Shown here one piece after another: positions 9,183-52,436 of a stretch of DNA of 64,000 bases. The DNA is from Candidatus Kapaibacterium sp. (GTDB lineage Bacteria > Bacteroidota > Ignavibacteria > Kapaibacteriales > UBA2268), in assembly GCA_963664875.1 (NCBI GenBank), contig OY761611.1, positions 1,216,001-1,280,000 of the forward strand, written 5' to 3'. A program made the position numbers and the translations under genes. Position 1 is the stretch's first letter. The number at the start of each line of letters is the position of its first letter. The notes beneath the pieces were generated by a model. The model had not been told where the DNA came from. It saw only the letters and a program-made list of their open reading frames with translations, and searched no databases.

Positions 9183-12100
9183 TTATAGTTTCACTTTACT
9201 TTTACTTATAGAGAAGCTAAATTTACTTCCTTTTGAAATTTCTGATTCTAATGAGATAGAACCACCATAGAATTCAACTATCTTTTTAGCAATGCTAAGG
9301 CCAATCCCTGAAGATTCCTCATTATTGCCGTCAATAGTTTGGAAAATATTGAATATCTTTTTAAAATATTTCTCATCAATACCTATACCATTATCTTCTA
9401 TAGAAAAATAATGATAGTTAGAATCCTCTGAATATCCTAAATTTAGGAGAACTTCTTTTTTATCATTGTACTTAAAGGCATTAGAAATCAGATTTTGGTA
9501 TATCTGTGAAATACGTGTTTTATCTGCTTTTATTACAGGTAAAACATGGTTTATTTTAATTTCTGAATTTCTTTCGTCTTTTACAAGGTCAAAAATTTCT
9601 TGTATTAGTTTATTCAAGTCAATTTCTTCGGCTTGTTCTTCGATTCTTCCGACTCTTGAATAATCGAGTACACCATCTATGAGAGTGTACATCTTTTTAA
9701 TTCTTGACTGTAGCAAATCAAACATTTCAATATTTTCTGATTCCAATTTTTCTTCAATATCTGTTCTTATCCATTCTGAAAGTTGGCTAATGCCTCGTAG
9801 CGGAGCTTTCAAGTCATGAGAAACAATATATGCAAAATCTTTTAGTTCTGTATTAATATTTTGCAATTCAGAAGTTCTGTCCTGAATTCTTTTTTCCAAA
9901 GTTTTATTTAAAGAAATCAGTTCATTTTGATAGTTAGCTCTTTCTATCTCTGCAGCTATTCTCCCTGCAAAGATTTGTAATATTTCTTTTGATAACAAAT
10001 CATCTTCTATCGGACGCTGAAACAGTGCTAAAAGGACACCTATCACTTCATTATCAGAACCAATTAGAGGAGTACCAACATAACCTTCGATGGATAAATC
10101 CTTAAGAATATTATCTTGCGGAAATATTCCTGCTACATCTTCATGATAAACACTCATGCCATACTCTAATACATTTTTGCTAGGCGTACCTTCAATTTCC
10201 GTAATCAGATTGCCAATTATCTTGTCCTTATTAGCTAAAGAGATGGATTTGACTGTTTTTTCATCTTGTTTTACACCAATAAAAGCGAAATCGCTTTTTA
10301 AGATTTTATTCAGATTAAGTGCAATGGAATTGAAAAATTCTTGTCCGGTGTAGGCTGCTACAGCTTCCACAACTGACTGAATTGCGTCATAAGCACGCTT
10401 CCTGTCTGAAACGTCTCTGAAAAATGCCAAAACAAGCTTGTCGTTATCGTTATTTATTTTTGTAATTGCTATTTCTGCATCAAACAATAAGCCATCCTCT
10501 TTTTGATGAAGGAAAGTAAATTTTGCAGAATTACCGGCAATTACTGCACTCGTAATCTCTTTGGCTTTTTGTATTGAGTTTTCACCTTTATATTGAGTTT
10601 CAGGCATAAAATTGTATATGGATTTTCCTTTCATTTTTTCAGGAGTGCTAGAAAACAATCTGAAGAATTCCGGATTTGCTTCTTTGATTATATCATTTTC
10701 CATAATGAGAATACCGTCGATTGCATTATCAAAAAGTGATCTATACCAATGCTCACTTTGCTCAAGTGCTTGAGATATTTTCATCCTTTGTGTTTGATCT
10801 TCATATAAAATAACTATCTCAGTTACAAGGTTGTTTTCAGTTAGAGGATAAACAAAACTATAAAGCCATTTCATTTCTTCTTTATCATCTAAATTGCCAA
10901 GCTGTTGGAATAAAAACGGACCTATTGCAGATGAAATCCCCTGTTTAGCTTTGTCGAAATATTCTTTGTATCCGAATTTAGAATGCTGCAAATCATTATA
11001 AACATTGAAGCCTAACTGTTCTTTTGTTGTGCTCGTCCAGAGCTGCTCCCATGCTTCATTTGAATACATCAAATCGCCATTCAAATCAAATATTAACGTT
11101 GCCATAGGAGATTGATTAAGAACTTTAGCAAGTCTTTCCTGTGATTTCTTTAAATCGGATTCTACTTTTTTACTCTCGCTAATGTCCCTTCCTTCGGCTA
11201 TTACTTCAAAAAACTCACCTTTCCCATCATAAATTGGCTTTAGAGAAAAATCGACTATAATTTTTTTGCCATTTATATTTTGATGTGTTGCCTCAAATCG
11301 AATAAATTTACCATTTTGTACTTCTCTAAACGCAGATATAAGATTTAGTTTCGCTTCTATATCTAATTCCCAGAATTCTGTTTCCCAAAACAATTTCCCA
11401 ATCAAAGCCTGTTTGTCTTTAGAAATAAAATCCGATGCAGACTTATTTATTTCTTTTATATAGCCATACTTATCAAGAACGGCGATAAACTGGAATGTAG
11501 AATCAAAAAAGATTCTGAATTTATTTTCTGTAGCGAAAAGCTCTTTATATGCCAATTCCTTATTCGAATTTAGTCGTCTGGTATTTCTGATAATGTAAAC
11601 AGACAAACCAAACATTATAAAAGCTATAATTGTAAAAGTGGTATTAATGTTAGAATTCAGCTCTGCTACTTTTACCTTGATATCATCGATATATGCACCT
11701 GTTCCTATGATATACCCCCAAGGTTTGAATAGTTTTATATAAGCTACTTTATCACGATAAACATTTGTCTGTTTAACAGAAGTCCATTTATAAAAGACAA
11801 ATCCTTCGGAACTGTCTCTACCAAGTTTATTCATGTTTAATAAGACTTCCTTTTCGGGAGTATTTTCCAATTCATAGAGCTTTTTACCCAAAATATTTAA
11901 TGAGTAAGGATGACTTACCAGCATAGCCTGATCATTAATAACCCAGAAGTAGCCGTTGTTACCATCATACTTCATTGAATTCAATCTCTTAAGCAAACGG
12001 CTTTTTGCTTCAAATTCGGTAAGTTCACCTGATTCATATCTCTTGTAGTAATCAAACACAAGCCCTTCTGCAGAACTTACCATATCATGAAGGAGTTTCT

Positions 12101-39840: not shown

Positions 39841-39872
39841 AAAAAAAAGCTGCCCGAAAAAATCCGAGCAGC
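39841..39872 (-). terminator. Intrinsic terminator ending the leftward cytochrome-rhodanese operon
   Basis: On the minus strand GCTGCTCG-loop-CGGGCAGC followed by T8. Confidence 0.75.
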
Positions 39873-39904
39873 CTATAAAAACTTAATATCATAAAGTAAT
39901 GAGC

Positions 39905-40918
39905 TTATTCAGTTACTTTGGGATATTCATAAGATTCTTTAGATTCATCCCAAACAGTAAGTTTACCTGCAACCATTTTGTCGTAAATCATTGCATTTGC
40001 ACCATAAAGAAGTGATTTTGCATTATAACCTAATACCTGAAGGTATGCTGCTATATAAGCACTTGTTTGGCCAGTGTAGCAATAAACAACAACTTCTTTA
40101 TCTGTAGGTAATGTTTTCAAATCGTTGGAGAACATCAAGCTTTCGCCCGGTGTATATTGAATAGCACCTGCAACGTGTCCCGGATCAGTATAATGTGCCA
40201 ATGACCAATAATTTACGATATAGTATTTTGACAAATCAAGGTATAGATTAGCATTCGTAATTTTGGCAACATCGAAGCCTGCAGCTAAAGCAGCTTCTAC
40301 TCTTGCTCTAAGAATTTCAGGACCGGTTTTTTTGCCTGTATTCAAAGTAGGAAGTTTGCCTGCAGCAGCTTTTGGAGTTTCTGTGCTTGTGAAATCTTCG
40401 GCTCTTGAGTTTCCGATGTTTTTGTTCCAAACGTTAACTGCATTTTCTTTATTCCAAGAAGACATACCCCATTTCAAAGAAGAAACTTTTGTGTGTCCCA
40501 TCATTCTCAATAAGGATGCACCATAAGCAGCAGTTTGACCTGAGTAACATACAATTACGATATCAGTATATTGTGATTCGTCTAAGCCTTCAACATGTGT
40601 AAGAAGATTTGCCAACGTTACATTATGTGCACCTTCAATGTGACCGCTTTTGAAGTCAGCTTCATTTCTGATGTCAATTAAATATTGTTTGCCGGGATTT
40701 GTTGACATATCTGTATAAAGAGCTGAAGCACCTTTTACTACCGGGAACTTCAAATTGAGAGTTTCGAGATACTCTGCCAATACCTGTGACTCATTGATAG
40801 TAACAGGATTAGTAGGTGTATCTTCGTCATCATCACTACAAGCTGTGAATGACAAACCTAATGCTAATAACATTAGCATAAATAGGTAATTAGAACGTTT
40901 TAGCATTTCTTTAAACAT
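39905..40918 (-). CDS. Tandem rhodanese-domain (sulfurtransferase) lipoprotein
   Basis: Lipobox FTA-C-SDDDED. Two rhodanese domains (IDIR...GHIEGA and GHVAGA), each with an active-site loop (CYSGQT, CYTGQT). GGAGG RBS. Confidence 0.9.
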   Translation of the reverse strand: MFKEMLKRSNYLFMLMLLALGLSFTACSDDDEDTPTNPVTINESQVLAEYLETLNLKFPVVKGASALYTDMSTNPGKQYLIDIRNEADFKSGHIEGAHNVTLANLLTHVEGLDESQYTDIVIVCYSGQTAAYGASLLRMMGHTKVSSLKWGMSSWNKENAVNVWNKNIGNSRAEDFTSTETPKAAAGKLPTLNTGKKTGPEILRARVEAALAAGFDVAKITNANLYLDLSKYYIVNYWSLAHYTDPGHVAGAIQYTPGESLMFSNDLKTLPTDKEVVVYCYTGQTSAYIAAYLQVLGYNAKSLLYGANAMIYDKMVAGKLTVWDESKESYEYPKVTE

Positions 40919-40960
40919 AGGACCTCCTAAAAGAAAATATATAAAAATATTTGAAAATTA

Positions 40961-42316
40961 CTATTTAACACCCCACGAAGCAGGCAATTTATCATCAACG
41001 GCAACGTGTTCGGTTGATTTCAATTCCCAATCTTCTTTCAAATCAGATTTGAACAAATACAAATCTTTGTTTCTGAGGCTGTCGCCTTCTTTTATAATAT
41101 GGCACGCATCATAACATGGTTTACCATCAGCAGGTGAACACTGTGCTGTTACTGTTCTGATATTATGAGGCGATGTATAATTATAAATTGGGAAAGCATC
41201 AAAATTAGCAAGTTTAGATTCACCATATTCTTTCCAGCTGTCAGGAGCCATAAGACTTCTTCTTACTAGAACCATTTTGCCCGGTCTGACATCTTGAATC
41301 GGATTGACACCTATTTTGTAGTCAAGATATGAAGGAACTCTTGCACCTTCACCATGAATGTGGCAGCTTCCGCAATTGTTATATGGTTGCGAGTGGCAAA
41401 CATAACAATTCAAATCATTGATATGCATCGAATGGTATTTATTTGCCTTTTCGAGACTACCATGGCAATCTGTACACTGAGGCAAATTAGGATCGTTGTA
41501 ACGGGTTTCATATTTGTTGCCGTCGCCGTGCATTTCTTGAGTGCCATGACATGCAAGACAATCAAATTTCATTTTTTCGAAGTGGATATCAACTTTTGTT
41601 CCCGGTGCCATTCCAAGATATGCGTGACCGCCTCGGCTTGAGTGACAAGCAACACAAGTATTAGTCATATCCGGTTTTCTGACGAAATTGTGTCCGTCTA
41701 TCAAACCGCCACCACCGGCAGGTGGTCTATTTATGTGACATTCGCCGCAGGTACCGTGGCATCTGGCACAGTTGAAATCATAACCGTGTTTCAGGTCATC
41801 AGGAAGCTGGTCAAACTCATGAGAGCCTGCAAGCCCGTATCTTGTTGTTACTTTTCTTTTTTGTCCCCACCCATTAACATGGATGCTGGTTAGAGCATTG
41901 TGCGATTTTGTAGGGTGGCACTCAGCACACTTATCCATAGCAACGTGTGAAGGAGCGCTAATAAAGTCACCAGAGTGAGCTTTAACCTTGTCATTTGTGC
42001 CTTCAACACCATTATGGCAATAAGTACAACCAAGTTTGTAGTGCTTAGATTGTTTGAATTTTTGATAACCCGAACCTCCAAGATAAACTCTGTCATAAGG
42101 TTCGATATGAACAACATCGCCGCTACAACCTCCTGCAACCTCTCCGGTATCAGGTGAATACACTGCTTTTAGCAATTCATAGTCTGCGTGGCAGCTTTCG
42201 CAGGTGCTGAGCACTTCAGTTTTGTCGATTGGTGTAGTATCTTCGTCATCGCTACAAGCTGAAATGACAGAAAGAGATACACTAATCAGTAATAAGAATA
42301 ATAGCCTTTTTTTCAT
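40961..42316 (-). CDS. Multiheme c-type cytochrome lipoprotein (10 CxxCH + 1 CxxxCH)
   Basis: Lipobox ISA-C-SDDED. Motifs CESCH, CTYCH, CAECH, CARCH, CGECH, CVACH, CLACH, CTDCH, CYVCH, CGSCH and CYDACH. Confidence 0.93.
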   Translation of the reverse strand: MKKRLLFLLLISVSLSVISACSDDEDTTPIDKTEVLSTCESCHADYELLKAVYSPDTGEVAGGCSGDVVHIEPYDRVYLGGSGYQKFKQSKHYKLGCTYCHNGVEGTNDKVKAHSGDFISAPSHVAMDKCAECHPTKSHNALTSIHVNGWGQKRKVTTRYGLAGSHEFDQLPDDLKHGYDFNCARCHGTCGECHINRPPAGGGGLIDGHNFVRKPDMTNTCVACHSSRGGHAYLGMAPGTKVDIHFEKMKFDCLACHGTQEMHGDGNKYETRYNDPNLPQCTDCHGSLEKANKYHSMHINDLNCYVCHSQPYNNCGSCHIHGEGARVPSYLDYKIGVNPIQDVRPGKMVLVRRSLMAPDSWKEYGESKLANFDAFPIYNYTSPHNIRTVTAQCSPADGKPCYDACHIIKEGDSLRNKDLYLFKSDLKEDWELKSTEHVAVDDKLPASWGVK

Positions 42317-42347
42317 GGCGTACTCCAATATATATTACCCATGTGAA

Positions 42348-44456
42348 TTATTTCGGGTTATGACAATCTGAGCAATATTGATTCAAAATATCTTTATCCA
42401 AACCGCCAGGGTGAATAAATGTGTTTGCATTTAAACTATCCGCCAAAGGTTTTCCGGCAACAAGTTTGGTAGTAATAGTATGGCATAAATTGCAATCATT
42501 GCTCAAAACCTCTCCTGCTTTATTCACGTGATTACCGTCATGGCATCTGAAACACCCTTTGCTGTATAGGTGCGATTCGTGATTAGCATAAACTTTCCAA
42601 TTTGCATTCATCTCAGGGAAATAGTTTTTGAGGTAAATTGCATTCAATTCAATTATAGCCAGATTTAATTCATCTCGCATATCTATAGGAACGTTTGGAT
42701 AATTCTCTTTATAATATTTAGTCAAAGCATTTTTGATTTCCTCAATCGAATTTTCTCTTGATTTCAAAGATTCTAATACTCTAACGCCAATTTTTTTGAT
42801 ATTCGGCAATTTTGAATTTATTTTGTCATAAGCCATATAGGCATTTATTGTCTGATATGGGTCGTTATAAACATGCGACGGCCTATTGTGGCAGTCTATA
42901 CAGTCAAATTTCTTAAATTGAGCAGTTGGTGATATTTGCTTGCCTGTCAATCTATAGACTGTTTCTTTTCCGTCAGTTTTTGATATAGCTTTTACTAAAG
43001 GAATCGCATCATCCGGGTTATCTGGTTCGATATAAAGAATATCTTTGCTTATTCCCATGTGATAGTGAATGCCGGAACTGATACCGATTTCTCTGTTACC
43101 ACCACCTACTTTCATAGTTAGTGTGATACTATAGTGAGTATTTTCTTCGTCAGAGAGGAAATAATCACGCTTGAAAGATTTTTGTTCGTAATATTTTTCT
43201 TCCCAGTGGCATTTTTTACATGCTTCGGGAGACGGTCTCAAATATGTTGTAGGAGCTCCTAATGGCTTTTCATAACTGTCAGTAATGGTCATATATACCT
43301 GTGGCAAGCCGCTAAGTCTGTTTTGATCCCAAAACGAACTTTTTTCAGTGAAGTGGCAATCCACACATGCAATCTTAGAGTGCGGAGAAGATGCGTAAGT
43401 AACACTCACGGGTTCCATAACTTCGTGGCAGGCTTCCATACAAAAGCTGTTAGATTCTGTATATTCGTAGGCTTTCCTGCTACCGTAAATAGTAGTAATA
43501 ACAATAGTAAATGACACAACAGAAATGAGAAAGAAAAATAGCTGATGTTTTGCTCTGTTAAAGTCTAACAGAGGCAATCTGCGTTCTATATTTTTTTGTT
43601 TGTTTCTGTTTTCGTTTAGCCAACCAATCAGGATTACTATCAATCCCAAGAATAGAACCGAAGGAATGATAATGTAAGTAATCAGCCTTGTATAAGGATT
43701 GTTTGTCCCTACTAAAAACTCAAAAATTAAGAGTAGAACTATAAACACTAAGCTGAGCATAGTAATAAATGCACCGGATAGGGAGATTGGATTAGTAAGT
43801 AAGCTTGGTAATTTATCTTCATGTTCTTCTTCGTGATGATCTTCGTGTACTACGTGATAACCTGTAAACATAGCTATAAAGTGTTCGGAAGGAGTATTAC
43901 CTGTCGTTGCAAGATAGATATGAACAAACATAAATATCGTTAGGAAAAATCCCATTACAGTGTGTAGCATTGCCATAGGCCATACACCACCCATTCCGAA
44001 TATCTCATCAGGAGCCAGCTCCGGAAACATTAGAAACCAACCGGAAGCAATAATTACAGGAAATCCTATAAATACTATAAAGAAATAAGCCATCTGCTGC
44101 ATAGGATTAAACTTTTCTTTTTCACTAGCATGATAAGGATGCGGTTCGCCGAGGAAAATACCAAAAGTGTAAAACCTTGCCTGCTTTATAGAGCGAGTAA
44201 TAAAATTTCTCAAAGATGGCAAATAGTGCTTTATATTGCCGGAACTTATGTTTAAGATAAAATAAAAAAGATATAGAAAAGATAAGGCTATACCAGAAGT
44301 ATTGTGAGCAATCATAGCCACTTCGAAAGAAAAAAGAAAATCTCCGCTGCCGGCATAGTGCAAACTCATACCTGAAACGATAAGCACTACAAAGATTAGT
44401 GCGTTTAGCCAATGCCAAAGTCTGAGCCAAATCGGATATAAATATAACTTTTTCAT
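42348..44456 (-). CDS. Fusion protein: di-heme cytochrome b (CbcB/PhsC-like) + ImcH-like NapC/NirT heptaheme cytochrome
   Basis: N-terminal RLWHWLNA...SLHY, AHN, FNPMQQ, LHT and HIYLATTG cytochrome b motifs. His/Glu linker, three TM helices, then YTESNSFCMEACHEVM, CVDCH, CKKCHW, GIHYH, CIDCHNRPSH, GCFRCHDG, CNLCH and CSDCH. Confidence 0.88.
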   Translation of the reverse strand: MKKLYLYPIWLRLWHWLNALIFVVLIVSGMSLHYAGSGDFLFSFEVAMIAHNTSGIALSFLYLFYFILNISSGNIKHYLPSLRNFITRSIKQARFYTFGIFLGEPHPYHASEKEKFNPMQQMAYFFIVFIGFPVIIASGWFLMFPELAPDEIFGMGGVWPMAMLHTVMGFFLTIFMFVHIYLATTGNTPSEHFIAMFTGYHVVHEDHHEEEHEDKLPSLLTNPISLSGAFITMLSLVFIVLLLIFEFLVGTNNPYTRLITYIIIPSVLFLGLIVILIGWLNENRNKQKNIERRLPLLDFNRAKHQLFFFLISVVSFTIVITTIYGSRKAYEYTESNSFCMEACHEVMEPVSVTYASSPHSKIACVDCHFTEKSSFWDQNRLSGLPQVYMTITDSYEKPLGAPTTYLRPSPEACKKCHWEEKYYEQKSFKRDYFLSDEENTHYSITLTMKVGGGNREIGISSGIHYHMGISKDILYIEPDNPDDAIPLVKAISKTDGKETVYRLTGKQISPTAQFKKFDCIDCHNRPSHVYNDPYQTINAYMAYDKINSKLPNIKKIGVRVLESLKSRENSIEEIKNALTKYYKENYPNVPIDMRDELNLAIIELNAIYLKNYFPEMNANWKVYANHESHLYSKGCFRCHDGNHVNKAGEVLSNDCNLCHTITTKLVAGKPLADSLNANTFIHPGGLDKDILNQYCSDCHNPK

Positions 44457-44457
44457 C

Positions 44458-45909
44458 TTATTTTCTTCCTGAACGTTTGAAATACCATCTTAAAAAGCTG
44501 TGAAGAACCAAAAATACAGCAGTAATGCTTAGAAGCATAATAAAGCCGGTATCTAAGATTGCATTCCTTGTGGTCCCTACAACATAAGCGTCGCTTAAAA
44601 TTGTACCGTTTATAAAACCAAATTTTTCTCTTGATTTTTCTTTTTCGTGTTTATATAGCTTTGTCATCAATATTGAATTTTTTGAGTGACACTCTTCGCA
44701 CTTTTGTACAGTTTTTTCAGGGGGTAAAATGTCGTGAGACATGTGCGGTTGCGAAAAAGATGAGTGACAGTCTGTGCATCTGACAGTCTCCCAGTGTATG
44801 GACATTTTAGGGAGCCATTCGTGAGCTTCCTGCACTGTACTTACATCATATTTATCCATCATTGCTTTGTCAACGTGGCAGACCACACAATACACCATCT
44901 GATTTTCGATAAATGTTGTTTTATTTATATGATTAGCAGTGAAAACAGATGCCTTGATGTCCGGAATTTTTGCTATATCATGTTCACCATGGCAAAATGT
45001 ACAAGCCGGCGAATCCGGATTGCCTTTAGCGAGTGCTTTGCCGTGTATGCTCATTTCATATTCGTGAGCAACTGAGATATGGCATTTACCACATACTTTA
45101 GATATTTTTGACTTATGAACTGTCGAATTTGGAGAAGAAGATTTTTGCAAATCATGAGTACCGTGGCAATCAATACATGTAGCTGCATTTTGATTGCCTG
45201 ACATCAACTGGCTACCATGCACACTTTTTTCGTAATTCACTAAGGATTTTGAGTGTGATGTCTGATTTTCTGACTTGATATGGCAGCTGATGCAAAGCTT
45301 TTCCTGATTGATTTTCAGCTGCAAAGCATTTTTTTCACTTGCAGGCGTAATAGCACTTCTGTGGCACGAAATACATGTCGGAGACCTATGACTGTTTTCA
45401 ACAAATTTGTGCTCACTGGTATTATGCAATTTTACCACATCTTCATGGCAAGCACCACAGTAAGCTACAGATTTGGAAGCATGCATTGGTGATTCTTCAG
45501 ATTTTGGACTAACAACCTGATGAGTCCCGTGACAAGCCTTGCAATCATTTAGCTTAGCATAATCTTTGTGATTTTTATTTTGCATAGCCGCATGAAAAAG
45601 ATGTTTTTTAGCAGCATCTGTATGGCATGATGCACAATCGATTGGCTTTATATTTTCAGCATGCGGGACATCCTCTGCATTGAAGCCTTTGTGGCAATCA
45701 ACACATTTTAACTTACTATGCGGAGAATTAGCCAAATCAGCAGCTTTCACATAAAGCGAAATCTCTTTGCCATTTTTCTCCATAGAAATGTCTTTATCCG
45801 AGTGACATTCCATACATAGTTCTTCAGCAGAAGCAGATAGTCCCAAGCCGACAACTAAAATCAGGGCTGTAAACATCAGGAGAAAATAATTTTTCATGAC
45901 ATCATCCAT
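44458..45909 (-). CDS. 13-heme periplasmic cytochrome c with C-terminal membrane anchor (CbcA-like)
   Basis: Signal peptide, 13 CxxCH motifs and C-terminal YVVGTTRNAILD-TM-LHSFLR. Stop lies 1 nt before the cytochrome b fusion start. Start may be 45897. Confidence 0.9.
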   Translation of the reverse strand: MDDVMKNYFLLMFTALILVVGLGLSASAEELCMECHSDKDISMEKNGKEISLYVKAADLANSPHSKLKCVDCHKGFNAEDVPHAENIKPIDCASCHTDAAKKHLFHAAMQNKNHKDYAKLNDCKACHGTHQVVSPKSEESPMHASKSVAYCGACHEDVVKLHNTSEHKFVENSHRSPTCISCHRSAITPASEKNALQLKINQEKLCISCHIKSENQTSHSKSLVNYEKSVHGSQLMSGNQNAATCIDCHGTHDLQKSSSPNSTVHKSKISKVCGKCHISVAHEYEMSIHGKALAKGNPDSPACTFCHGEHDIAKIPDIKASVFTANHINKTTFIENQMVYCVVCHVDKAMMDKYDVSTVQEAHEWLPKMSIHWETVRCTDCHSSFSQPHMSHDILPPEKTVQKCEECHSKNSILMTKLYKHEKEKSREKFGFINGTILSDAYVVGTTRNAILDTGFIMLLSITAVFLVLHSFLRWYFKRSGRK

Positions 45910-46031
45910 CGGATATAATTAAATATGAAGATAAGATATACAACTTGTAAAAATCCTACAATTATATCTTTGTAATTTTGATAAAATAAGCCCCCTTAAA
46001 TATATTTTTAGTTTTACCTAATAGAAATAAA

Positions 46032-46045
46032 TTGCTACATATCAA
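46032..46045. promoter_or_regulatory. Candidate FNR/Crp-family binding site
   Basis: TTGCT-ACAT-ATCAA, a 9/10 match to TTGAT-N4-ATCAA, in the divergent promoter region of the cytochrome island. Confidence 0.4.
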
Positions 46046-46364
46046 TATATTGAAATATAAGACTCTTTAAGTCCGATATAAAGGGCTTTAAAGAATTATT
46101 TTATTGGTATATAGTTGCCTCATACACTTTTAGTCTTGCCTAATAATTATCCGAAATATAACATGAGAAATTTTCAATTGCAGATAAAATTTTCTCAAAA
46201 TTTCTTATTTATATTTCGTATATTAAAATAGGATAGATTATATTGTGTTATGCTCTTACTGCTAATAGGCCATCAACGTCCTTATTATTTATAGAGCTTA
46301 ATAGAGGAATCTTTCCAAGATACAAATTGGTAATACAATTTTTATAATAACACAGGAGGTATTT

Positions 46365-46958
46365 ATGAAATTGAAAAAAGTGATTTTCGGATTTATCGCT
46401 GTTGCCACCATGGCAGGTGTTGTTTCTACAATATCGCTAACTTCGGTAACAAGCAAAGAAAGCCCTAAGTACATCGGTGCAGACAAATGTAAAATGTGCC
46501 ACAAAGGCGAAAAAAAAGGTGACCAGTTTAAAATATGGTCAGAAGGTGCACACGCAAAAGCTTATGCTACTTTGGCAAGTGCAGAATCTAAAGCTATCGC
46601 TGCAAAAATGGGAATAGCTGACCCTCAAAAAGCTCCTGAGTGTTTGAAATGCCACGTAACAGCCTACAATGTAGATGCTTCTCTCAAAGAAAAAACATTG
46701 AAATTAGAAGAAGGTGTTTCGTGCGAATCTTGCCACGGTCCCGGTTCTGAGTATAAAAATATGACTGTGATGAAAGACATTAGTTTAGGTAAAATCGATG
46801 GTGCTGACTTAGGCTTCAAACAGCAAACTGCAGAACTTTGCAAGCAGTGCCACAACGAAGAATCACCTACATACAAAGAATTCAAATTTGAAGAAAGAGT
46901 TAAAGAAATTGCACATCCGATGCCGGATGCTTATAAAAAGGAAAAAGGATATAAATAA
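46365..46958 (+). CDS. Tetraheme cytochrome c (cytochrome c554-like family)
   Basis: Signal peptide. YIGADKCKMCH, W..GAHAKAY.TL, CLKCH, EGVSCESCHGPGS.Y and CKQCHNEESP motifs. AGGAGG RBS. Confidence 0.9.
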   Translation: MKLKKVIFGFIAVATMAGVVSTISLTSVTSKESPKYIGADKCKMCHKGEKKGDQFKIWSEGAHAKAYATLASAESKAIAAKMGIADPQKAPECLKCHVTAYNVDASLKEKTLKLEEGVSCESCHGPGSEYKNMTVMKDISLGKIDGADLGFKQQTAELCKQCHNEESPTYKEFKFEERVKEIAHPMPDAYKKEKGYK

Positions 46959-47016
46959 GATATTGATTGTATGAAGCAATCATACTTTTTTTCCATAACT
47001 ATTTTTGGAGGTCATA

Positions 47017-48033
47017 GTGAAAAAAACTATCCAAATGCTTTCGATGCTACTTGTGCTGGTAGTATTGGGAGGAATGTTCTCAGCTTGCGAAGGTCCGGAA
47101 GGTCCGGAAGGTCCGGCTGGGAAAACAGGACAAAATGCTCTTGCAACATGTGACAATTGTCACGACGTTAGTACTGATTTGAAAGCAAGAATGCTTCAGT
47201 ACGCAAAATCTACTCACGCGTTAGGTGGTAACTTCGAAAGAAGTACTGCTGATTGTGCTCCATGTCACACTCACGAAGGTTTCGTAAATGTATTAGCAAC
47301 CGGCGAAACTGGTGATATTAGTAATCCAACTCCTCCGGGTTGCCGTACTTGTCATAATATTCATACTACTTATACAGTAGATGATTATGCATTGACTGCT
47401 ACAGCTCCTGTAGAATTAGCGGTGGGTAGCAAAACATTCGACAAAGGTAAAAGTAATTTGTGTGCAAATTGCCACCAATCACGTCCTTTCACTTTGCCTG
47501 AATTCAATGATTCAGAATTTTCTATCACAAGTTCTAGATTTGGTCCTCACCATGGTCCTCAATCTAATTTAATTATGGCTGCCGGTTTAGTTGAAATCCC
47601 TGGCAACGCATCATATCCATCTACAAACCCACATGCGGGTACTGGTGATGGTTGCGTTGATTGCCACATGGCAAATGCTTACGGCACTCAGGCAGGTGGA
47701 CATACAATGTCTGTTGCTTATGATTACCATGGAACAATTGAACCAAATACTGCTGGCTGTATTTCTTGTCACACTGACGAAACAGAACTTATTACTAAAC
47801 TTGAAGACTACAAAACAGAAATGGATGGTTTAATGACTCAAATTTCTGAAATATTAGTAGAAAAAGGTCTTTTGACTGCTACAGGAAGTGCAGTAGCAGG
47901 CAAAACAACAGGTAAATTAGCTTCTGCTCTTCTTAACTATAGAACTATAGCAATAGAAGATAGATCTTATGGTGTTCACAATCCGAAATATGTAAGAGCT
48001 CTACTCAAAAACACATTAGAGTCTCTACAGTAA
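47017..48033 (+). CDS. Hexaheme c-type cytochrome lipoprotein with short collagen-like tether
   Basis: GGAGG RBS with GTG start, lipobox FSA-C, then EGPEGPEGPAGKTG. Motifs CDNCH, CAPCH, CRTCH, CANCH, CVDCH, CISCH and a C-terminal GVHNPKY. Confidence 0.9.
   Translation: MKKTIQMLSMLLVLVVLGGMFSACEGPEGPEGPAGKTGQNALATCDNCHDVSTDLKARMLQYAKSTHALGGNFERSTADCAPCHTHEGFVNVLATGETGDISNPTPPGCRTCHNIHTTYTVDDYALTATAPVELAVGSKTFDKGKSNLCANCHQSRPFTLPEFNDSEFSITSSRFGPHHGPQSNLIMAAGLVEIPGNASYPSTNPHAGTGDGCVDCHMANAYGTQAGGHTMSVAYDYHGTIEPNTAGCISCHTDETELITKLEDYKTEMDGLMTQISEILVEKGLLTATGSAVAGKTTGKLASALLNYRTIAIEDRSYGVHNPKYVRALLKNTLESLQ
47089..47115 (+). repeat. Perfect 9-bp tandem repeat (GAAGGTCCG)x3
   Basis: Direct reading of the sequence. 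Encodes (EGP)3 immediately after the lipidated Cys. Confidence 0.9.
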
Positions 48034-48038
48034 CATAA

Positions 48039-48112
48039 ATGGTCTGCCCTCCGCTGCTAAGCCTAAAGGAGCACTTAGGCTTAGCACCCGGGGCAGTACC
48101 ATATTTTTTTTT
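48039..48112 (+). terminator. Long intra-operon stem-loop (terminator or mRNA stabiliser)
   Basis: ATGGT-CTGCCC...TGCTAAGCCTAA-loop-TTAGGCTTAGCA...GGGCAG-TACCAT followed by T9. Confidence 0.7.
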
Positions 48113-48130
48113 ATTCAGGAGCAAGCTATT

Positions 48131-49345
48131 ATGAGGAAATACTTATTACTCTTATGTTTTTTTACGGTAGCATATTTTGCTCAGGCAGATTTAACTTACA
48201 AAGCAAAAGTTACTTCCGGGCTTTTCTCAGGAGCTCAATTTTACAATAGAGAAAACCTCGAAGACAGATTGCTTAATCCTAACGAAGATGCTTACAGATG
48301 GTACAACCGTATAGCACTACAAAGCACTTATGACAGATTTTCTGTTAACTTTAATGCTATTCGTAGTGATTATCTTGACTTTGACGGAGTCAAACCTTAC
48401 TTCCCTCGAAATGAAATTAACGAAACTAAAATGTATCAGGCTTATGCTCAGTATAAGTTCGATGACGGTAATATCAAATTAGGTAGAGTAATGCCGTTTT
48501 CAAGATGGTATTTTAGCTCTGTCGATGGCGGTTCTTTTGATTATCAGGTCAATTCCAATTTTTCTGTAAGTGCTTTTGCAGGTAGTGATGTAGATTACGG
48601 TCTTTTTGTTGATGATGACAACAGAAAAGCCGTTGGCTACACAGAAATTGCCTATCGCGAGCAAAATTATGGCGGTAAAGTAAAATACTTGTACGCTAAC
48701 GAAGAATCTAAACTTGGAACTGATTTGTTTTTTAGAACAGATAAGCATCGTGTAGCTGCAAACATTGGTTATGATGCGACTAACTCTCGCCTATTTGATG
48801 CAGGTTTAGGATATTTTGCTTACTTAACACCTGAGCTTAATGTTTCTGCTAATTACTTACGTACAATTCCTATCAGCTGGAGCTATAAATTCTATTCCGA
48901 ATATATAGACAGAGTTCAGATTGGAATCAGCTATGATTTAGGTAAAAACTATACAGTATCTTTAAAACAGATGCTTGGTCTTGCTGATGGTAATTCAAAC
49001 TATTTGACTTATCTCTATCTCACTCATAAATACTTTTATGTAGGTTTAAATTATTTATCAGGCGATATGGAAGCAGAACGCTTAGCTATCACTTGTGGCG
49101 GACAGTATTCCCCTATGGATAACTTAATGCTTCAAGCCGGTATAGCTTCTGTAGATCATATGTTTGATAATTTTTACTATAAAGACGAACAAACATATTC
49201 TTCGTACTTCAAAGTAAGATACAAAGCACTGGACTATTTAAACCTTGCTGCCTACGCAAACTACTACCACCAAAATTCTATGTTTGATAACAAATGGCGT
49301 GGCGGTCTGACTGCCCAACTTATACTCGCAGGAGGTGGGAAATGA
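48131..49345 (+). CDS. Putative outer-membrane beta-barrel (porin of a porin-cytochrome complex)
   Basis: Signal peptide (AQA-D), Tyr/Phe/Gly-rich alternating beta-strands, no heme motifs, lies between two multiheme genes and overlaps the next gene (ATGA). Confidence 0.75.
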   Translation: MRKYLLLLCFFTVAYFAQADLTYKAKVTSGLFSGAQFYNRENLEDRLLNPNEDAYRWYNRIALQSTYDRFSVNFNAIRSDYLDFDGVKPYFPRNEINETKMYQAYAQYKFDDGNIKLGRVMPFSRWYFSSVDGGSFDYQVNSNFSVSAFAGSDVDYGLFVDDDNRKAVGYTEIAYREQNYGGKVKYLYANEESKLGTDLFFRTDKHRVAANIGYDATNSRLFDAGLGYFAYLTPELNVSANYLRTIPISWSYKFYSEYIDRVQIGISYDLGKNYTVSLKQMLGLADGNSNYLTYLYLTHKYFYVGLNYLSGDMEAERLAITCGGQYSPMDNLMLQAGIASVDHMFDNFYYKDEQTYSSYFKVRYKALDYLNLAAYANYYHQNSMFDNKWRGGLTAQLILAGGGK

Positions 49346-50241
49346 AAATTTTTCAGATAATCATTAGCTCAGTCGCTCTGCTATCTGTGGTACTTATGGG
49401 CATATATAGCTCAAACATGACTGCTGACGATACAGTAAAAAGCTGGGAGTCGGATTTGATTTTTTCTCATGCAAAACATGTGATTGAAAACGAACTCGCC
49501 TGCGAAACTTGCCATGCTGATGCTGCAAATTCGGAAACAGGTAATGACGATTTGCTTCCTAAGGAAGAAACTTGTATCACTTGCCATGAGAAAACTGAAG
49601 AATCTTGTGTGATGTGTCATACTAATCCGAAAAATCCAAAAATCATGCCTCGGATTACTGACTATTCTCAAAAGTTTAGCCATAAACAACACATAGACAA
49701 AGGTGCTGACTGTAACTCATGCCATACTGATATTGCTAAAAAAGACAAGGTTGCTAAACCTAACTTACCTGATATGCACAAATGTATGACTTGCCACGAA
49801 ACTCCGGAAGAAACTAAAGAATGTTATATCTGTCATGATCAGGATTATAATCTAATTCCAAAAGATCATACTGAAATGTGGCTCGATAATCACTCTAATT
49901 TTGTGGAAGCGGAAGGCAACAAATGCCAAACTTGCCATCAGGAACAGTATTGTATGGATTGCCATAGAGGCGAAAACCTCTTTAACAATTCTCACCCTCC
50001 TCATTTTATGGCTACTCACTCTATGAGCTATCTAATGAGAGAGTCTAACTGCCAATCATGCCACGAAGGTCTGGAATCTTGTAGAGAATGCCACATGGAA
50101 ATAAACTATGTCATTCCTCCTGATCATATGCCATCTACCTGGATCGGCGAACATATGTTCTCCGGAAAAATCAATGCTGATAAGTGCGTTGTTTGTCACA
50201 GGAAAGATGAGCCTCGTTGTATGGATTGTCATACTAAATAA
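49342..50241 (+). CDS. Dodecaheme cytochrome c (c3/c7-type repeats)
   Basis: GGAGGT RBS, N-terminal hydrophobic segment, FSH..H c7-type motifs and 12 CxxCH in 299 aa. Confidence 0.92.
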   Translation: MKIFQIIISSVALLSVVLMGIYSSNMTADDTVKSWESDLIFSHAKHVIENELACETCHADAANSETGNDDLLPKEETCITCHEKTEESCVMCHTNPKNPKIMPRITDYSQKFSHKQHIDKGADCNSCHTDIAKKDKVAKPNLPDMHKCMTCHETPEETKECYICHDQDYNLIPKDHTEMWLDNHSNFVEAEGNKCQTCHQEQYCMDCHRGENLFNNSHPPHFMATHSMSYLMRESNCQSCHEGLESCRECHMEINYVIPPDHMPSTWIGEHMFSGKINADKCVVCHRKDEPRCMDCHTK

Positions 50242-50242
50242 T

Positions 50243-50281
50243 AAAAAAATAGGCAGCTTCGATTAGTTGCCTATTTTTTTT
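50243..50281. terminator. Bidirectional terminator
   Basis: AAAAAAATAGGCAGC-loop-GTTGCCTATTTTTTTT. Confidence 0.85.
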
Positions 50282-50367: not shown

Positions 50368-50769
50368 CTATCCCTTGATATGAATTAGTGCTTTTCTTAG
50401 CGTATCAGGGAGATTTACTGCCCGCCGATCAGTATTACTTAAACAGATATGATTGGTACGTGCGATTACTGCAATAGAGTCTTTGCTGTAAACCTGATAT
50501 TCAAGTTTATATTTGAAATCACTGATTTCAATGCAGAAAATGCGTATAATGATATCATCTCCTGCGTAAAGCGGGGCTTTGTAAGATGCTTCCGTATGCA
50601 AAATCGGTAAGATAACCCCTGAGCTATCCAAAATAGATGTAATAGGAAAATCAGCAGTTTCTAAAAAATACTCATAAGCCCTATGGATTATGTTAAAAAT
50701 CTTTGCATAAAACATGACACCGGCGGCATCAGTATCTTCGAAGAAAATCTTAGTTCTGTGTTCAAACAT
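50368..50769 (-). CDS. Hot-dog acyl-CoA thioesterase (4HBT type)
   Basis: FEDTDAAGVMFY...HRAYE and Y.APL..GD motifs. Confidence 0.85.
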   Translation of the reverse strand: MFEHRTKIFFEDTDAAGVMFYAKIFNIIHRAYEYFLETADFPITSILDSSGVILPILHTEASYKAPLYAGDDIIIRIFCIEISDFKYKLEYQVYSKDSIAVIARTNHICLSNTDRRAVNLPDTLRKALIHIKG

Positions 50770-52436
50770 TATATCACCTTTACTCCAATTAGTGTTATAT
50801 CGTCAAATTGTTGTGTTCCAATTGCAAATTGCTGGACATCCTCGACAATAATTTTGAGCATTTCTTCAACAGGGAATTTCCGAATATCCCGAACCAATTC
50901 CTGAAGCCTTTCATCTCCATATTCAAGATTAGAAGTATTGAGTGCTTCGGTAATTCCGTCTGTAAACATGCAAATCACAGAATCTTGTTCTAATTTGACT
51001 ACCGCCTGCTCATATTCGAAAGGGTCGTCCATAAAGCCCAAAATCAAACCACCTGCGGTTAGATGCTCTATATGCAAATCTGAATGTAGAATGAACGGCG
51101 GATTGTGTCCGGCGTTGATGTACTCAAAAGTTTTGTGCTCAGAATCTAATATACCCATGAAAAAGGTAACAAATTTATCTGAGGAAGTATTCAAATAAAC
51201 GATTTTGTTGAGACGTTGTACTATTTCTCTAAGAGGAAGCCCCAAAGGAGCAATAACTCTAAGTGCAGCCTGAACATTAGCCATCAGCAATGCGGCAGGC
51301 ATACCTTTTCCGGAAACGTCAGCAATGGCAACAATAGTTCGATTCTCATCCAGCTTAATAAAATCGTAATAGTCGCCACCTACATGTCTTGACGGCAAAC
51401 TTATGCCATGTATTTCAAAATATTTTACATTTGGTACATTTTTAGGTAATAAATTTTTCTGAATATCGAGAGCCAGATTAAGTTCGTTCTCTAATTTTTT
51501 CTTTTCTATTTCCTCTTTAAATAACCTCTCAGACTCTAAAGTGGAAATTGCTGTATTGCCAAGGGCTTCTATAAATTGTAGGTTTTCGTCAGTGAACTCA
51601 CTACCATTCATTTTTTTTCCAATAACAAGCAGTGCTTTGGGATTTCCCTGAATGAACATAGGAGCTATGACATTGATATTATATTTTTTGCAATATTCAG
51701 TGAAATTTTCTCCGAAATTGGAATTATTGCAGACAACCGGCTCCTTTATTCTTGTCATTCTATTCAAAAATGAAATATCTTCCAGCTCTTCAAATCTATT
51801 GATATAAGCATCTTCAATCTTATTGTTTTCGATTTGGAAAATGGCAAATCTATTTACCATTAGTTGTCCCATCAGATGAAAAGACAGCATTTTTATTATT
51901 TCTTTTTTCGACAAAAGGTTGCTAAAATCGCGGGACATTTCAAACAGCGTAGTCAAAAGCTGATTTCTTTGTTCGATTGTAATCTTCTCTTGAATAAGAG
52001 ATTGCTGATGTTCCGCATTTTGAAGTGCATTGGCAGATATAGTGCAGACAAGTCTTGCATATTTTTCTTCTTCCCCGGATAGTTCGGTACCTAAAAGTCT
52101 ATCGCCCAAGCATATAAAAGCAAAGATTTTTTCACGATATTCCACAGGAAAAACAAATCGGATATTATACTGCTCTAAAGTAGTACGAAGGGTGGAATAA
52201 TCCCCCATACATTTTTCAATGTCAAACTCTAAGTAATCTGGAGTAAATTTCCCTTTGCTCAGGTATAATTTTAGTCCTTTGTTGTTTGGCACAAGCACCC
52301 CTGCCCTCAGCACTTTGAGTTTTCCCATAAGCGAGAGCAAAGTAGAATTTAAGATAAATTCTTTGCTGTGGGTTTCGTTGAGCCTGGCACTCAGTTCGAG
52401 TAAAGATTCAAGATTTATAATTACATTATGTTGCAT
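50769..52436 (-). CDS. GAF-domain PP2C/SpoIIE (RsbU-like) phosphatase
   Basis: IQKNLLP, VGGDYYD, IADVSGKG, INAGHNPP, FTDGITEA and DDIT motifs, preceded by two GAF-like regions. Confidence 0.92.
   Translation of the reverse strand: MQHNVIINLESLLELSARLNETHSKEFILNSTLLSLMGKLKVLRAGVLVPNNKGLKLYLSKGKFTPDYLEFDIEKCMGDYSTLRTTLEQYNIRFVFPVEYREKIFAFICLGDRLLGTELSGEEEKYARLVCTISANALQNAEHQQSLIQEKITIEQRNQLLTTLFEMSRDFSNLLSKKEIIKMLSFHLMGQLMVNRFAIFQIENNKIEDAYINRFEELEDISFLNRMTRIKEPVVCNNSNFGENFTEYCKKYNINVIAPMFIQGNPKALLVIGKKMNGSEFTDENLQFIEALGNTAISTLESERLFKEEIEKKKLENELNLALDIQKNLLPKNVPNVKYFEIHGISLPSRHVGGDYYDFIKLDENRTIVAIADVSGKGMPAALLMANVQAALRVIAPLGLPLREIVQRLNKIVYLNTSSDKFVTFFMGILDSEHKTFEYINAGHNPPFILHSDLHIEHLTAGGLILGFMDDPFEYEQAVVKLEQDSVICMFTDGITEALNTSNLEYGDERLQELVRDIRKFPVEEMLKIIVEDVQQFAIGTQQFDDITLIGVKVI

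Follow-up and report, generated by a model that had tools for sequence, protein, structure and literature searches.

In Geobacter, quinol is oxidized at the inner membrane by ImcH when high-potential acceptors are respired, and the hallmarks of this protein are three transmembrane (TM) helices, an atypical CX3CH motif beside the TM domain, six CX2CH motifs, homology to NapC/NirT and a length of 495-519 amino acids (aa) (PMC4251993, PMC6295460; here and below, published systems are described as far as the cited passages of these reports go). The low-potential quinol oxidase CbcL is a HydC/FdnI-type dihaem cytochrome b fused to a 9-haem c domain (PMC6295460). At the outer membrane, ExtABCD and ExtEFG each combine a barrel with small lipoprotein cytochromes and a dodecahaem cytochrome of the periplasm, and porin-cytochrome clusters have already been reported for Ignavibacterium album, Melioribacter roseus and anode-enriched Ignavibacteria (PMC4245776, PMC7399161). 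The Geobacter cluster extHIJKLMNOPQS encodes a rhodanese lipoprotein, a porin, cytochromes and a cytochrome b/Rieske pair together (PMC5877670); the rhodanese lipoprotein and porin of this ext cluster are found together with MccSep, a multihaem polysulfide reductase that carries a Cys-ligated haem and is required for respiration of elemental sulfur (S0) (PMC13510729, PMC6148476, PMC5877670). Both the respiration of insoluble elemental sulfur and the wiring from membrane to outside in non-proteobacteria are only partly understood. Here we describe an eight-gene cluster of multihaem cytochromes at positions 39905-50241 of a 64,000-nucleotide stretch (the window), which corresponds to positions 1,216,001-1,280,000 of the complete genome (3.83 Mb, 36% GC) of a Candidatus Kapaibacterium sp.

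We put at about even the chance that the cluster encodes a complete menaquinol-to-surface electron conduit for anaerobic respiration, the terminal pair of which, an 11-haem lipoprotein and a tandem rhodanese, acts on sulfane sulfur (S0 or polysulfide) or a related chalcogen. Sulfur-type chemistry is favoured because every locus examined links the 11-haem gene with a tandem rhodanese whose catalytic sites are intact; because the 11-haem protein combines enzyme-like conservation with an invariant free cysteine and a missing distal histidine; because the cytochrome b domain of the inner-membrane protein is PhsC-like and the one molybdopterin-type open reading frame (ORF) of the genome lies elsewhere; and because Geobacter sets a precedent, in which the ExtH rhodanese, the ExtI porin and MccSep are encoded together. 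The cluster consists of two divergent operons, with the following features:

39847..39874, minus strand: intrinsic terminator at the end of the minus arm (12-bp stem and T-run; -18.1 kcal/mol, z -7.2, 0 of 200 shuffles as good)
39905..40918, minus strand: tandem-rhodanese lipoprotein, 337 aa, predicted to be surface-exposed (PF00581, lipobox)
40961..42328, minus strand: 11-haem lipoprotein cytochrome, 455 aa, candidate terminal enzyme (10 CXXCH and 1 CX3CH, lipobox)
42348..44456, minus strand: cytochrome b/ImcH-type fusion, 702 aa (PF01292, PF03264, 6 CXXCH and 1 CX3CH)
44458..45909, minus strand: 13-haem cytochrome, 483 aa, with a C-terminal membrane anchor (13 CXXCH, signal peptide)
45910..46364, no strand: divergent intergenic region, 455 bp, AT-rich (sequence inspection)
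46365..46958, plus strand: cytochrome c554-like tetrahaem protein, 197 aa, periplasmic (PF13435 E 1e-19; 4 haem motifs; signal peptide without lipobox)
47005..48033, plus strand: 6-haem lipoprotein cytochrome, 342 aa, candidate outer-face component of the conduit (6 CXXCH, lipobox)
48131..49345, plus strand: outer-membrane beta-barrel, 404 aa, without haem motifs, conduit porin (AlphaFold2 (AF2) model, Foldseek)
49342..50241, plus strand: 12-haem periplasmic cytochrome, 299 aa from a revised start, candidate barrel insert (12 CXXCH, no lipobox)
50243..50281, plus strand: intrinsic terminator at the end of the plus arm (hairpin and T8; -19.4 kcal/mol, z -7.1, 0 of 200 shuffles as good)

The cluster had first been picked out in an earlier reading of the window (the original prediction), and its anatomy held throughout: the eight ORFs in two operons have exactly the coordinates then given, the cytochrome b domain, the rhodanese, the lipoboxes and the closing terminators are all present, and the 53 haem-c motifs claimed (11+7+13+4+6+12) were counted again as 51 CXXCH plus 2 CX3CH. 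Only 15 stop-to-stop ORFs in the whole genome contain at least three CXXCH motifs; six of the 15 lie in the cluster, where they hold 51 of the 114 motifs. The haem-c maturation genes expected elsewhere in the genome are represented there by a CcsBA-type gene.

Both proteins of the terminal pair have a lipobox, ISAC with the mature start C-SDDEDT in the 11-haem protein and FTAC with C-SDDDED in the rhodanese. The rhodanese contains two PF00581 stretches (E 4e-27), and its active-site cysteines C124 (CYSGQT) and C280 (CYTGQT) are kept in 97% and 100%, respectively, of 75 unique orthologues. A rhodanese orthologue (37-53% identical) lies directly 3′ of the 11-haem gene in 14/14 genome loci, and in metagenome loci with at least 700 nt downstream its distance is at most 300 nt in 69 of 71 and about 1.2-1.3 kb in the other two. 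Full-length orthologues of the 11-haem protein (43-58% identity) are present in 50 of the 300 other genomes of our class survey, which covered 301 genomes of the same GTDB class including that of the window (this count and two given below, 133/301 and 26/50, are hand tallies of match rows), and a metagenome scan returned 422 relatives. Among 18 orthologues, 165 of the 455 columns are at least 94% conserved; the mean column identity of the protein is 67%. All 11 haem motifs, C68, exactly ten non-motif histidines, K114 and K338 are invariant in 85 unique orthologues. C68 stands in the context G-G-C-x-G; in the best 80 metagenome loci the residue aligned with it is Cys in 76 and Gly in four, and never a stop. 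Since ten invariant non-motif histidines face eleven haems, at least one haem is predicted to be without an invariant His partner.

We propose that the rhodanese would bind the sulfane sulfur of S0 or polysulfide (possibly of thiosulfate or selenite) and carry it on both catalytic cysteines as a persulfide, and that the 11-haem cytochrome would then reduce this persulfide at the haem without a His partner, next to Cys68, in a manner analogous to the His/Cys haems of MccSep, TsdA and SoxAX. The ext cluster, a system for the respiration of S0/polysulfide and also of selenite, resembles the present one in that a rhodanese-like lipoprotein and a porin-like barrel are encoded with several multihaem cytochromes and a cytochrome b of the inner membrane, and MccSep (ExtKL) likewise is a multihaem enzyme performing sulfur chemistry with a cysteine at the active haem. 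Nevertheless, MccSep has five haems and a selenocysteine and is periplasmic, whereas the protein described here is a lipid-anchored cytochrome of 11 haems, with a plain cysteine and a signal of the surface-export type; it thus lies outside the MccSep family as delimited by five haem motifs and a periplasmic location. ExtH is a protein of 49 kDa, while the rhodanese here has 337 aa. In the ext cluster the b subunit is paired with a Rieske protein, whereas here the b domain is fused to an ImcH-type module, and the sole NCBIfam match to any Ext protein is ExtS at 18 bits, far under its cut-off of 100.

What else could such a pair do? A strong alternative is generic extracellular electron transfer to Fe(III)/Mn(IV) minerals, humics or electrodes, in which the surface cytochromes would reduce metals directly and the rhodanese would be accessory, for example in protection, in maturation or in the handling of iron sulfides. 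The ImcH architecture and the porin-cytochrome organization are hallmarks of respiration on metals and electrodes, anodes enrich for Ignavibacteria with such clusters, some of which reduce Fe(III) (PMC7399161), and the extracellular lipoprotein cytochrome is swapped non-orthologously between relatives of the cluster, as has been described for Geobacter conduits. Metal reduction leaves unexplained, however, the near-absolute linkage of the 11-haem gene to a tandem rhodanese with both catalytic cysteines kept, a degree of conservation in the 11-haem protein (67% mean column identity) that electron-shuttling cytochromes do not usually show, and the invariant free cysteine together with the missing distal histidine. 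We regard metal reduction as the less likely account of the cluster, although it would be compatible with sulfur chemistry and does not exclude it. Should metal reduction be its sole function, the cluster would be a complete but ordinary representative of a known kind.

On the inner-membrane side, the 702-aa protein of the minus arm contains two parts. Residues 1-205 are a cytochrome b of the FdnI/HydC/PhsC type (PF01292, 82.8 bits), for which the best curated match is the PhsC model NF011582 (171.3 bits against a cut-off of 204, E 2.7e-50). In residues 213-702, three hydrophobic helices (222-255, 255-282 and 302-326) stand ahead of the haem domain, where a CX3CH motif (CMEACH) at 339 is followed by CXXCH motifs at 364, 413, 519, 635, 655 and 695; residues 305-396 form a NapC/NirT-like region (PF03264, 24.3 bits, cut-off 24.1), and the NrfH model TIGR03153 matches the protein at E 9e-11. 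By the published signature, which is complete within these ~490 residues, this part would be an ImcH-type module, likened to ImcH (GSU3259) by description. ImcH is a stand-alone, monocistronic protein of 495-519 aa, whereas the module here is fused behind a 4-TM cytochrome b in a chain of 702 aa and shares its operon with three genes. In 24 fused homologues, no variation is seen at His15, 33, 51, 165 and 179 or in any of the seven haem motifs. FdnI has a cytoplasmic N-terminus; with seven helices and an FdnI-like orientation, the haem-c domain of the fusion would be placed in the periplasm. The linker of the 702-aa protein (residues ~186-221), predicted to be cytoplasmic, is rich in His and acidic residues (HEDHHEEEHED).

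Fused and separate forms of these parts have different distributions. A stand-alone protein of ~500 aa, 31-40% identical to the ImcH-type part only, occurs in 133 of the 301 class genomes, and the nearest Atlas clusters to this part are NapC/NirT proteins of ~450-515 aa from Acidobacteriota, Verrucomicrobiota and Thermodesulfobacteriota. Full-length matches to the fusion among the class genomes are confined to the family of the window's own genome (G232, G298 and G253, the last with one in-frame TAA), and in G211 the 13-haem gene stands between a b gene and an ImcH-like gene, which are separate. Beyond the survey, ~65 protein clusters (713-761 aa) contain the fused form; they come from Kapaibacteriales, Kapaibacteriota, Chloroherpetonaceae and Ignavibacteria metagenome-assembled genomes (MAGs) and are named at source only as "cytochrome b/b6 domain-containing protein" or similar.

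The 13-haem protein has a signal peptide and a hydrophobic segment at 449-475, and its gene adjoins the b/ImcH genes in all five same-family genomes that have them. FdnH and hydrogenase small subunits dock on their b subunits; after this model, the 13-haem cytochrome would be anchored by its C-terminal helix beside the b domain. No significant match in the PDB was obtained for it by sequence or profile search. The arrangement recalls CbcL (MtoC/MtrH), with which it shares an FdnI/HydC-family b with invariant histidines and a large periplasmic multihaem c-type partner. The CbcL chain begins with its c domain and continues with six TM helices, whereas here the 13-haem partner is separate and has its own C-terminal anchor, and the b domain is itself N-terminal and fused to an ImcH-type module instead. 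The minus arm can accordingly be described, on these likenesses, as a putative split CbcL-like pair plus ImcH in one operon and partly in one chain.

The b domain shares with Salmonella PhsABC its best curated match, PhsC, at 171 bits and so below the cut-off of 204; in contrast to Phs, no PhsA/PhsB-type molybdoenzyme is encoded near the cluster. Only one molybdopterin-type ORF exists in the genome, and because it lies 640 kb away from the cluster, the PhsC-like b domain appears to be without a Phs/Psr partner. Quinol oxidation of the PhsC type is said to let the proton motive force drive the reduction of low-potential sulfur acceptors. From the domain families and the topology, we propose that menaquinol would be oxidized by the b-ImcH protein through two quinol-oxidizing modules, the dihaem cytochrome b and the 7-haem ImcH-type part. 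A bolder version, which we consider rather doubtful, is that the fusion and the 13-haem cytochrome make up a two-gear menaquinol dehydrogenase aided by the proton motive force, and that the conduit ends in a molybdenum-free and selenium-free extracellular sulfur reductase, the 11-haem cytochrome with an active haem of the His/Cys type, which the surface rhodanese would supply with sulfane sulfur. One complex would then unite the roles of the Geobacter proteins ImcH (high potential) and CbcL (low potential), and the PhsC-like b domain would allow electrons to be driven onto low-potential acceptors by the proton motive force. If this is true, insoluble S0 could be respired at the cell surface without import of polysulfide, by an enzyme pair that would be widespread (the 422 metagenome relatives and the 50/300 other class genomes).

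Could the electrons instead flow inward? Oxidation of extracellular reduced sulfur, of Fe(II) or of a cathode-like donor might feed the quinone pool or oxidases. Along this line, a homologue of the 13-haem protein (27% identical) is encoded directly upstream of a 200-aa cytochrome b in the purple sulfur bacteria Halochromatium and Lamprobacter, the genome encodes two haem-copper oxidases and one bd oxidase, and b-c cytochromes of the CbcL/MtoC type are also found in Fe(II) oxidizers (PMC6295460). Against it, the survey reported in the same paper has ImcH homologues only in Fe(III) reducers, as far as the cited passages go (PMC6295460), no Sox-type or other oxidation genes are seen in the cluster, and the reduction of menaquinone by most such donors would be uphill. 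We judge inward flow to be improbable. Given its oxygen oxidases, the organism is probably a facultative anaerobe. In the purple sulfur bacterial loci (L007:8997-12983 of Halochromatium salexigens and L008 of a Lamprobacter MAG), identity covers the C-terminal 300 aa of the 13-haem protein, the PhsC-like cytochrome b of 200 aa is 44-46% identical to the b domain of the window, and in L007 a 776-aa multihaem protein is encoded after the cytochrome b gene.

The plus arm appears, on gene content and order, to be a porin-cytochrome conduit of a type common in the class. The AF2 model of the 404-aa protein, computed with six sequences, is a 22-strand sheet with a predicted local distance difference test (pLDDT) score of 73.9 and a predicted TM-score (pTM) of 0.64, and its best Foldseek matches are FimD/PapC ushers, OprD/Occ porins and TonB receptors (TMq ~0.4-0.5, E ~1e-9), which bears out the barrel proposed for 48131-49345 in the original prediction. 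It belongs to no Pfam or NCBIfam family (E up to 10 and 0.01, respectively). A precomputed PF19494 tag on one barrel homologue was not reproduced at E up to 10. The close family is rare, with six close clusters among 5.8 billion proteins and, by profile search, 19 representatives at E ≤0.001 among 1.84 billion; a profile of 17 members matches 100 of the 301 class genomes weakly (E 1e-5 to 3e-19). In 19/19 fetched loci the distant barrel ORF (~350-470 aa) adjoins a multihaem ORF, and in 16/19 it does so on both sides.

The gene order in relatives is recurrent: on one strand follow a c554-like gene, the barrel gene, a 12-14-haem gene, a gene for a variable 5-28-haem protein, the 11-haem gene and the rhodanese gene. 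Six of nine mapped loci show it in full; in the other three the barrel was not matched by the local profile, and the class-wide search places one just upstream in G044. In other families the terminal pair shares an operon with the porin. Orthologues of the c554-like protein (38-50% identity) are encoded directly 5′ of the porin gene in 6/9 of the mapped clusters, genes for 12-14-haem homologues of the 12-haem protein (24-28% identity) follow the porin gene in relatives, and 6-haem orthologues (31-41% identity) occur in conduit clusters of other genomes. The barrel family is also present in 26 of the 50 class genomes that carry the 11-haem gene (again tallied by hand), and in nine genomes the barrel and 11-haem genes lie 3-6.5 kb apart on one contig. 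It is because the porin-family genes of relatives sit among multihaem genes in this recurrent order that we assign the plus arm, provisionally, to a class-wide type of conduit.

In the window the barrel is flanked by the 12-haem protein, which has no lipobox, and by the 6-haem lipoprotein. The latter has the lipobox FSAC followed by EGPEGPEG, and shows a weak likeness to the C-terminal part of NrfA; sequence and profile searches gave no significant PDB match for it. Its mature N-terminus after the lipidated cysteine is collagen-like, C-EGPEGPEGPAGKTG, and may be a flexible acidic tether. NCBIfam ExtS was also considered for the c554-like protein and rejected at 18 bits against the cut-off of 100. 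A complex prediction for the barrel with the 12-haem protein lends weak support to their association, with a score of 0.58 against 0.01 for the best of three controls, though a solved complex, MtrAB, resembles it and the pass may reflect memory, which counts against our interpretation. The score mark used is reached by 116 of 157 solved complexes and by 2 of 215 mismatched pairs, and scores of up to 0.60 include only 18 of the 157 solved complexes and both passing mismatches; at least 58% of the contacts agreed between runs and partner pLDDT was at least 73, and as custom alignments were used these benchmark counts hold only approximately.

On the gene order and this prediction, we propose that electrons would pass through the periplasm via the c554-like tetrahaem protein to the 12-haem cytochrome, which would sit inside the 22-strand barrel and there meet the 6-haem lipoprotein. 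The described conduits Pcc (OmaB-OmbB-OmcB), ExtABCD and that of I. album likewise have a barrel of ~400-450 aa beside a many-haem periplasmic cytochrome and small lipoprotein cytochromes, and ExtA/ExtG have 12 haems, as does the periplasmic cytochrome of the window. ExtB/E are stated to have 18-21 strands, whereas 22 are predicted here. The gene order also differs from that of the Pcc/Ext conduits, and the c554-like gene and the 11-haem/rhodanese pair are regular companions of the conduit here.

On which side of the outer membrane would the terminal pair act? The lipoprotein export consensus, as defined by experiment, is SDDDD in B. fragilis and K-(D/E)2 in Capnocytophaga (PMC5080379). Both terminal proteins fit the lipoprotein export signal (LES) pattern, a polar residue and then at least two acidic residues after the lipidated Cys, the consensus being that of Bacteroides and perhaps not that of this lineage. 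From these signals and their conservation, the 11-haem lipoprotein and the rhodanese would be flipped to the outer face by Bacteroides-type export. Were they to stay on the inner face of the outer membrane, the barrel would instead be a channel for polysulfide or selenite and the lipoproteins would act on the imported substrate, reducing it in the periplasm. In favour of this are the periplasmic location of MccSep, the first proposal made for ExtI, which was a channel and not a conduit, and the fact that surface exposure is here predicted from a sequence signal only. Yet S-(D/E)3 is rare in the genome, being found in five of 159 crudely predicted lipoproteins, two of which are the 11-haem protein and the rhodanese. 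The barrel gene is, moreover, always followed by a 12-14-haem cytochrome gene, as in conduits, and the barrel/12-haem prediction beat its controls, though weakly. Periplasmic chemistry therefore seems improbable to us.

Several further points weigh against the sulfur-reducing surface conduit. The export signal was defined in Bacteroidia and Flavobacteriia, another group than this lineage, and among distant orthologues at least two acidic residues at +2 to +6 are found in 46/69 cytochromes and 49/67 rhodaneses; these distant proteins often start with KEEP, GEEP or SDDD-type sequences, not always. The 11-haem protein matched no solved chain at E below 0.001 in sequence or profile searches, the best profile matches being MtrF (E 0.0018) and octahaem tetrathionate reductase 1sp3 (E 0.026), and its AF2 model with 17 orthologues has a mean pLDDT of 40.5 and no usable fold. 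The free cysteine could be structural, and the rhodanese partner and the conserved residues are the sole grounds for the proposed substrate. What is known of ImcH and porin-cytochrome systems comes from the reduction of metals and electrodes, not of sulfur. No NCBIfam or Pfam model for ImcH, CbcL, OmbB/ExtB/ExtI, ExtH or MccSep matched; likeness to these proteins is by description, and the whole chain is read from genes. The oxygen oxidases of the organism, mentioned above, count on the same side. Finally, in other genera of the same family the b-ImcH/13-haem pair is present and the barrel family is found in 0/11 genomes, and the 11-haem gene is not in G232 and G298; the two arms are separable.

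Among close relatives the two arms stay together. All eight genes occur in the same order in the four closest loci, from species-representative genomes, with 60-88% protein identity, so that both arms are syntenic in 4/4, which is the co-conservation on which the original prediction was staked. The record titles of the closest relatives are Candidatus Kapaibacterium sp., Chlorobiota bacterium or uncultured bacterium, and Kapaibacterium belongs in the NCBI taxonomy to the FCB group, phylum Bacteroidota, in agreement with the bacterium of FCB type that had been proposed. In other families (G152, G255, G206 and G069), an ImcH-like gene, a 13-haem homologue, c554, a porin region and a 12/14-haem gene lie in one cluster, joined in three of the four by a homologue of the 6-haem lipoprotein. 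That every layer from inner membrane to surface is encoded at one place, as originally proposed, fits the anatomy of the cluster and is not unique to it, given these families and Geobacter extH-S. The contrast drawn with Geobacter, whose parts were said to be at separate loci, was only partly right, as extHIJKLMNOPQS is itself a multi-layer cluster (PMC5877670).

How new, then, is the system? It had been put forward as the best candidate in the window for an undescribed system. Its overall kind, ImcH-type and b-type quinol oxidases with a porin-cytochrome conduit, is known and is reported in Ignavibacteria-type genomes; ImcH, cytochromes b of the FdnI/HydC type and porin-cytochrome systems have all been described (PMC4251993, PMC6295460, PMC4245776, PMC7399161). 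In the literature searched, on the other hand, no paper describes the b-ImcH fusion, the barrel (porin) family, or the 11-haem/rhodanese surface pair and its regular attachment to conduits, and these three appear to be undescribed. The route by which extracellular sulfur reaches periplasmic MccSep is left open in the cited passages of the 2026 MccSep paper (PMC13510729). The cluster offers testable candidates: a widespread 11-haem/rhodanese lipoprotein pair that may carry out sulfur (or selenium) chemistry at the surface, a natural fusion joining both kinds of inner-membrane quinol oxidase, which Geobacter employs at different redox potentials, and a new porin family for cytochrome conduits in Kapaibacteria/Ignavibacteria-type bacteria.

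Some relatives carry variants of the minus arm. In G232 (L041:5166-7301, 11170-12069), the 13-haem gene and the fusion are preceded by genes for a 5-haem lipoprotein, a 393-aa ORF, a Rieske protein and a monohaem cytochrome c and are followed by a tyrosine recombinase, and this Rieske-containing context differs from that of the window. The 393-aa ORF, which lies beside a 6-haem-like gene, was tried as a barrel relative and proved unrelated (hhalign probability 0.3%). Large multihaem ORFs with 19 CXXCH motifs (670-952 aa) accompany the 13-haem homologue in L043 (G253), L044 (G211) and L045-L047; such giant ORFs are missing from the cluster of the window.

As to the boundaries of the genes and operons, the 12-haem gene most likely begins at M17, that is at 49342 rather than at 49294: this start gives an ATGA overlap with the stop codon of the barrel gene and is used by two of four close orthologues. 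A scan for sigma-70 promoters gave 41 sites against 39.6 expected by chance, and the sigma-54 pattern occurred 28 times (28.2 expected), never in the intergenic region 45910-46364. In G112 (L067:4216-5550), a gene for a 444-aa activator with PAS, sigma-54-interaction (AAA+) and HTH domains and a cysteine-rich N-terminal stretch lies directly 5′ of the 11-haem/rhodanese pair, and gaps of a size like that of this gene are present in L066, L068, L070 and L072; the window has no such activator gene.

A mobile island was considered and rejected, as the window contains no tRNA or mobility gene, the flanks are housekeeping genes and the GC content is unremarkable. The flanking phosphotransferase system (PTS) enzyme I, thioesterase and SpoIIE-type phosphatase had no match above 60 bits in the loci of the four close relatives, which we take as rearrangement and no sign of mobility; the word "island" used originally holds in the sense of a gene cluster only.

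Contigs from wastewater, pond and groundwater runs match the DNA of the cluster at 90-99%, and further runs, mostly from wastewater, contain part of its sampled words. In one wastewater metatranscriptome (X20), short contigs, mostly 90-99% alike, fall on parts of six of the eight genes and on the housekeeping flanks; the presence of contigs in this RNA library is no demonstration of transcription or co-expression, and uncovered parts are uninformative. Next to the cluster lies the SpoIIE/PP2C-type phosphatase gene (50769-52436, minus strand), and a longer, 30%-identical homologue of it (L066:13007-15493) adjoins the conduit cluster of G094, so that it may be a regulator, or its place a coincidence.

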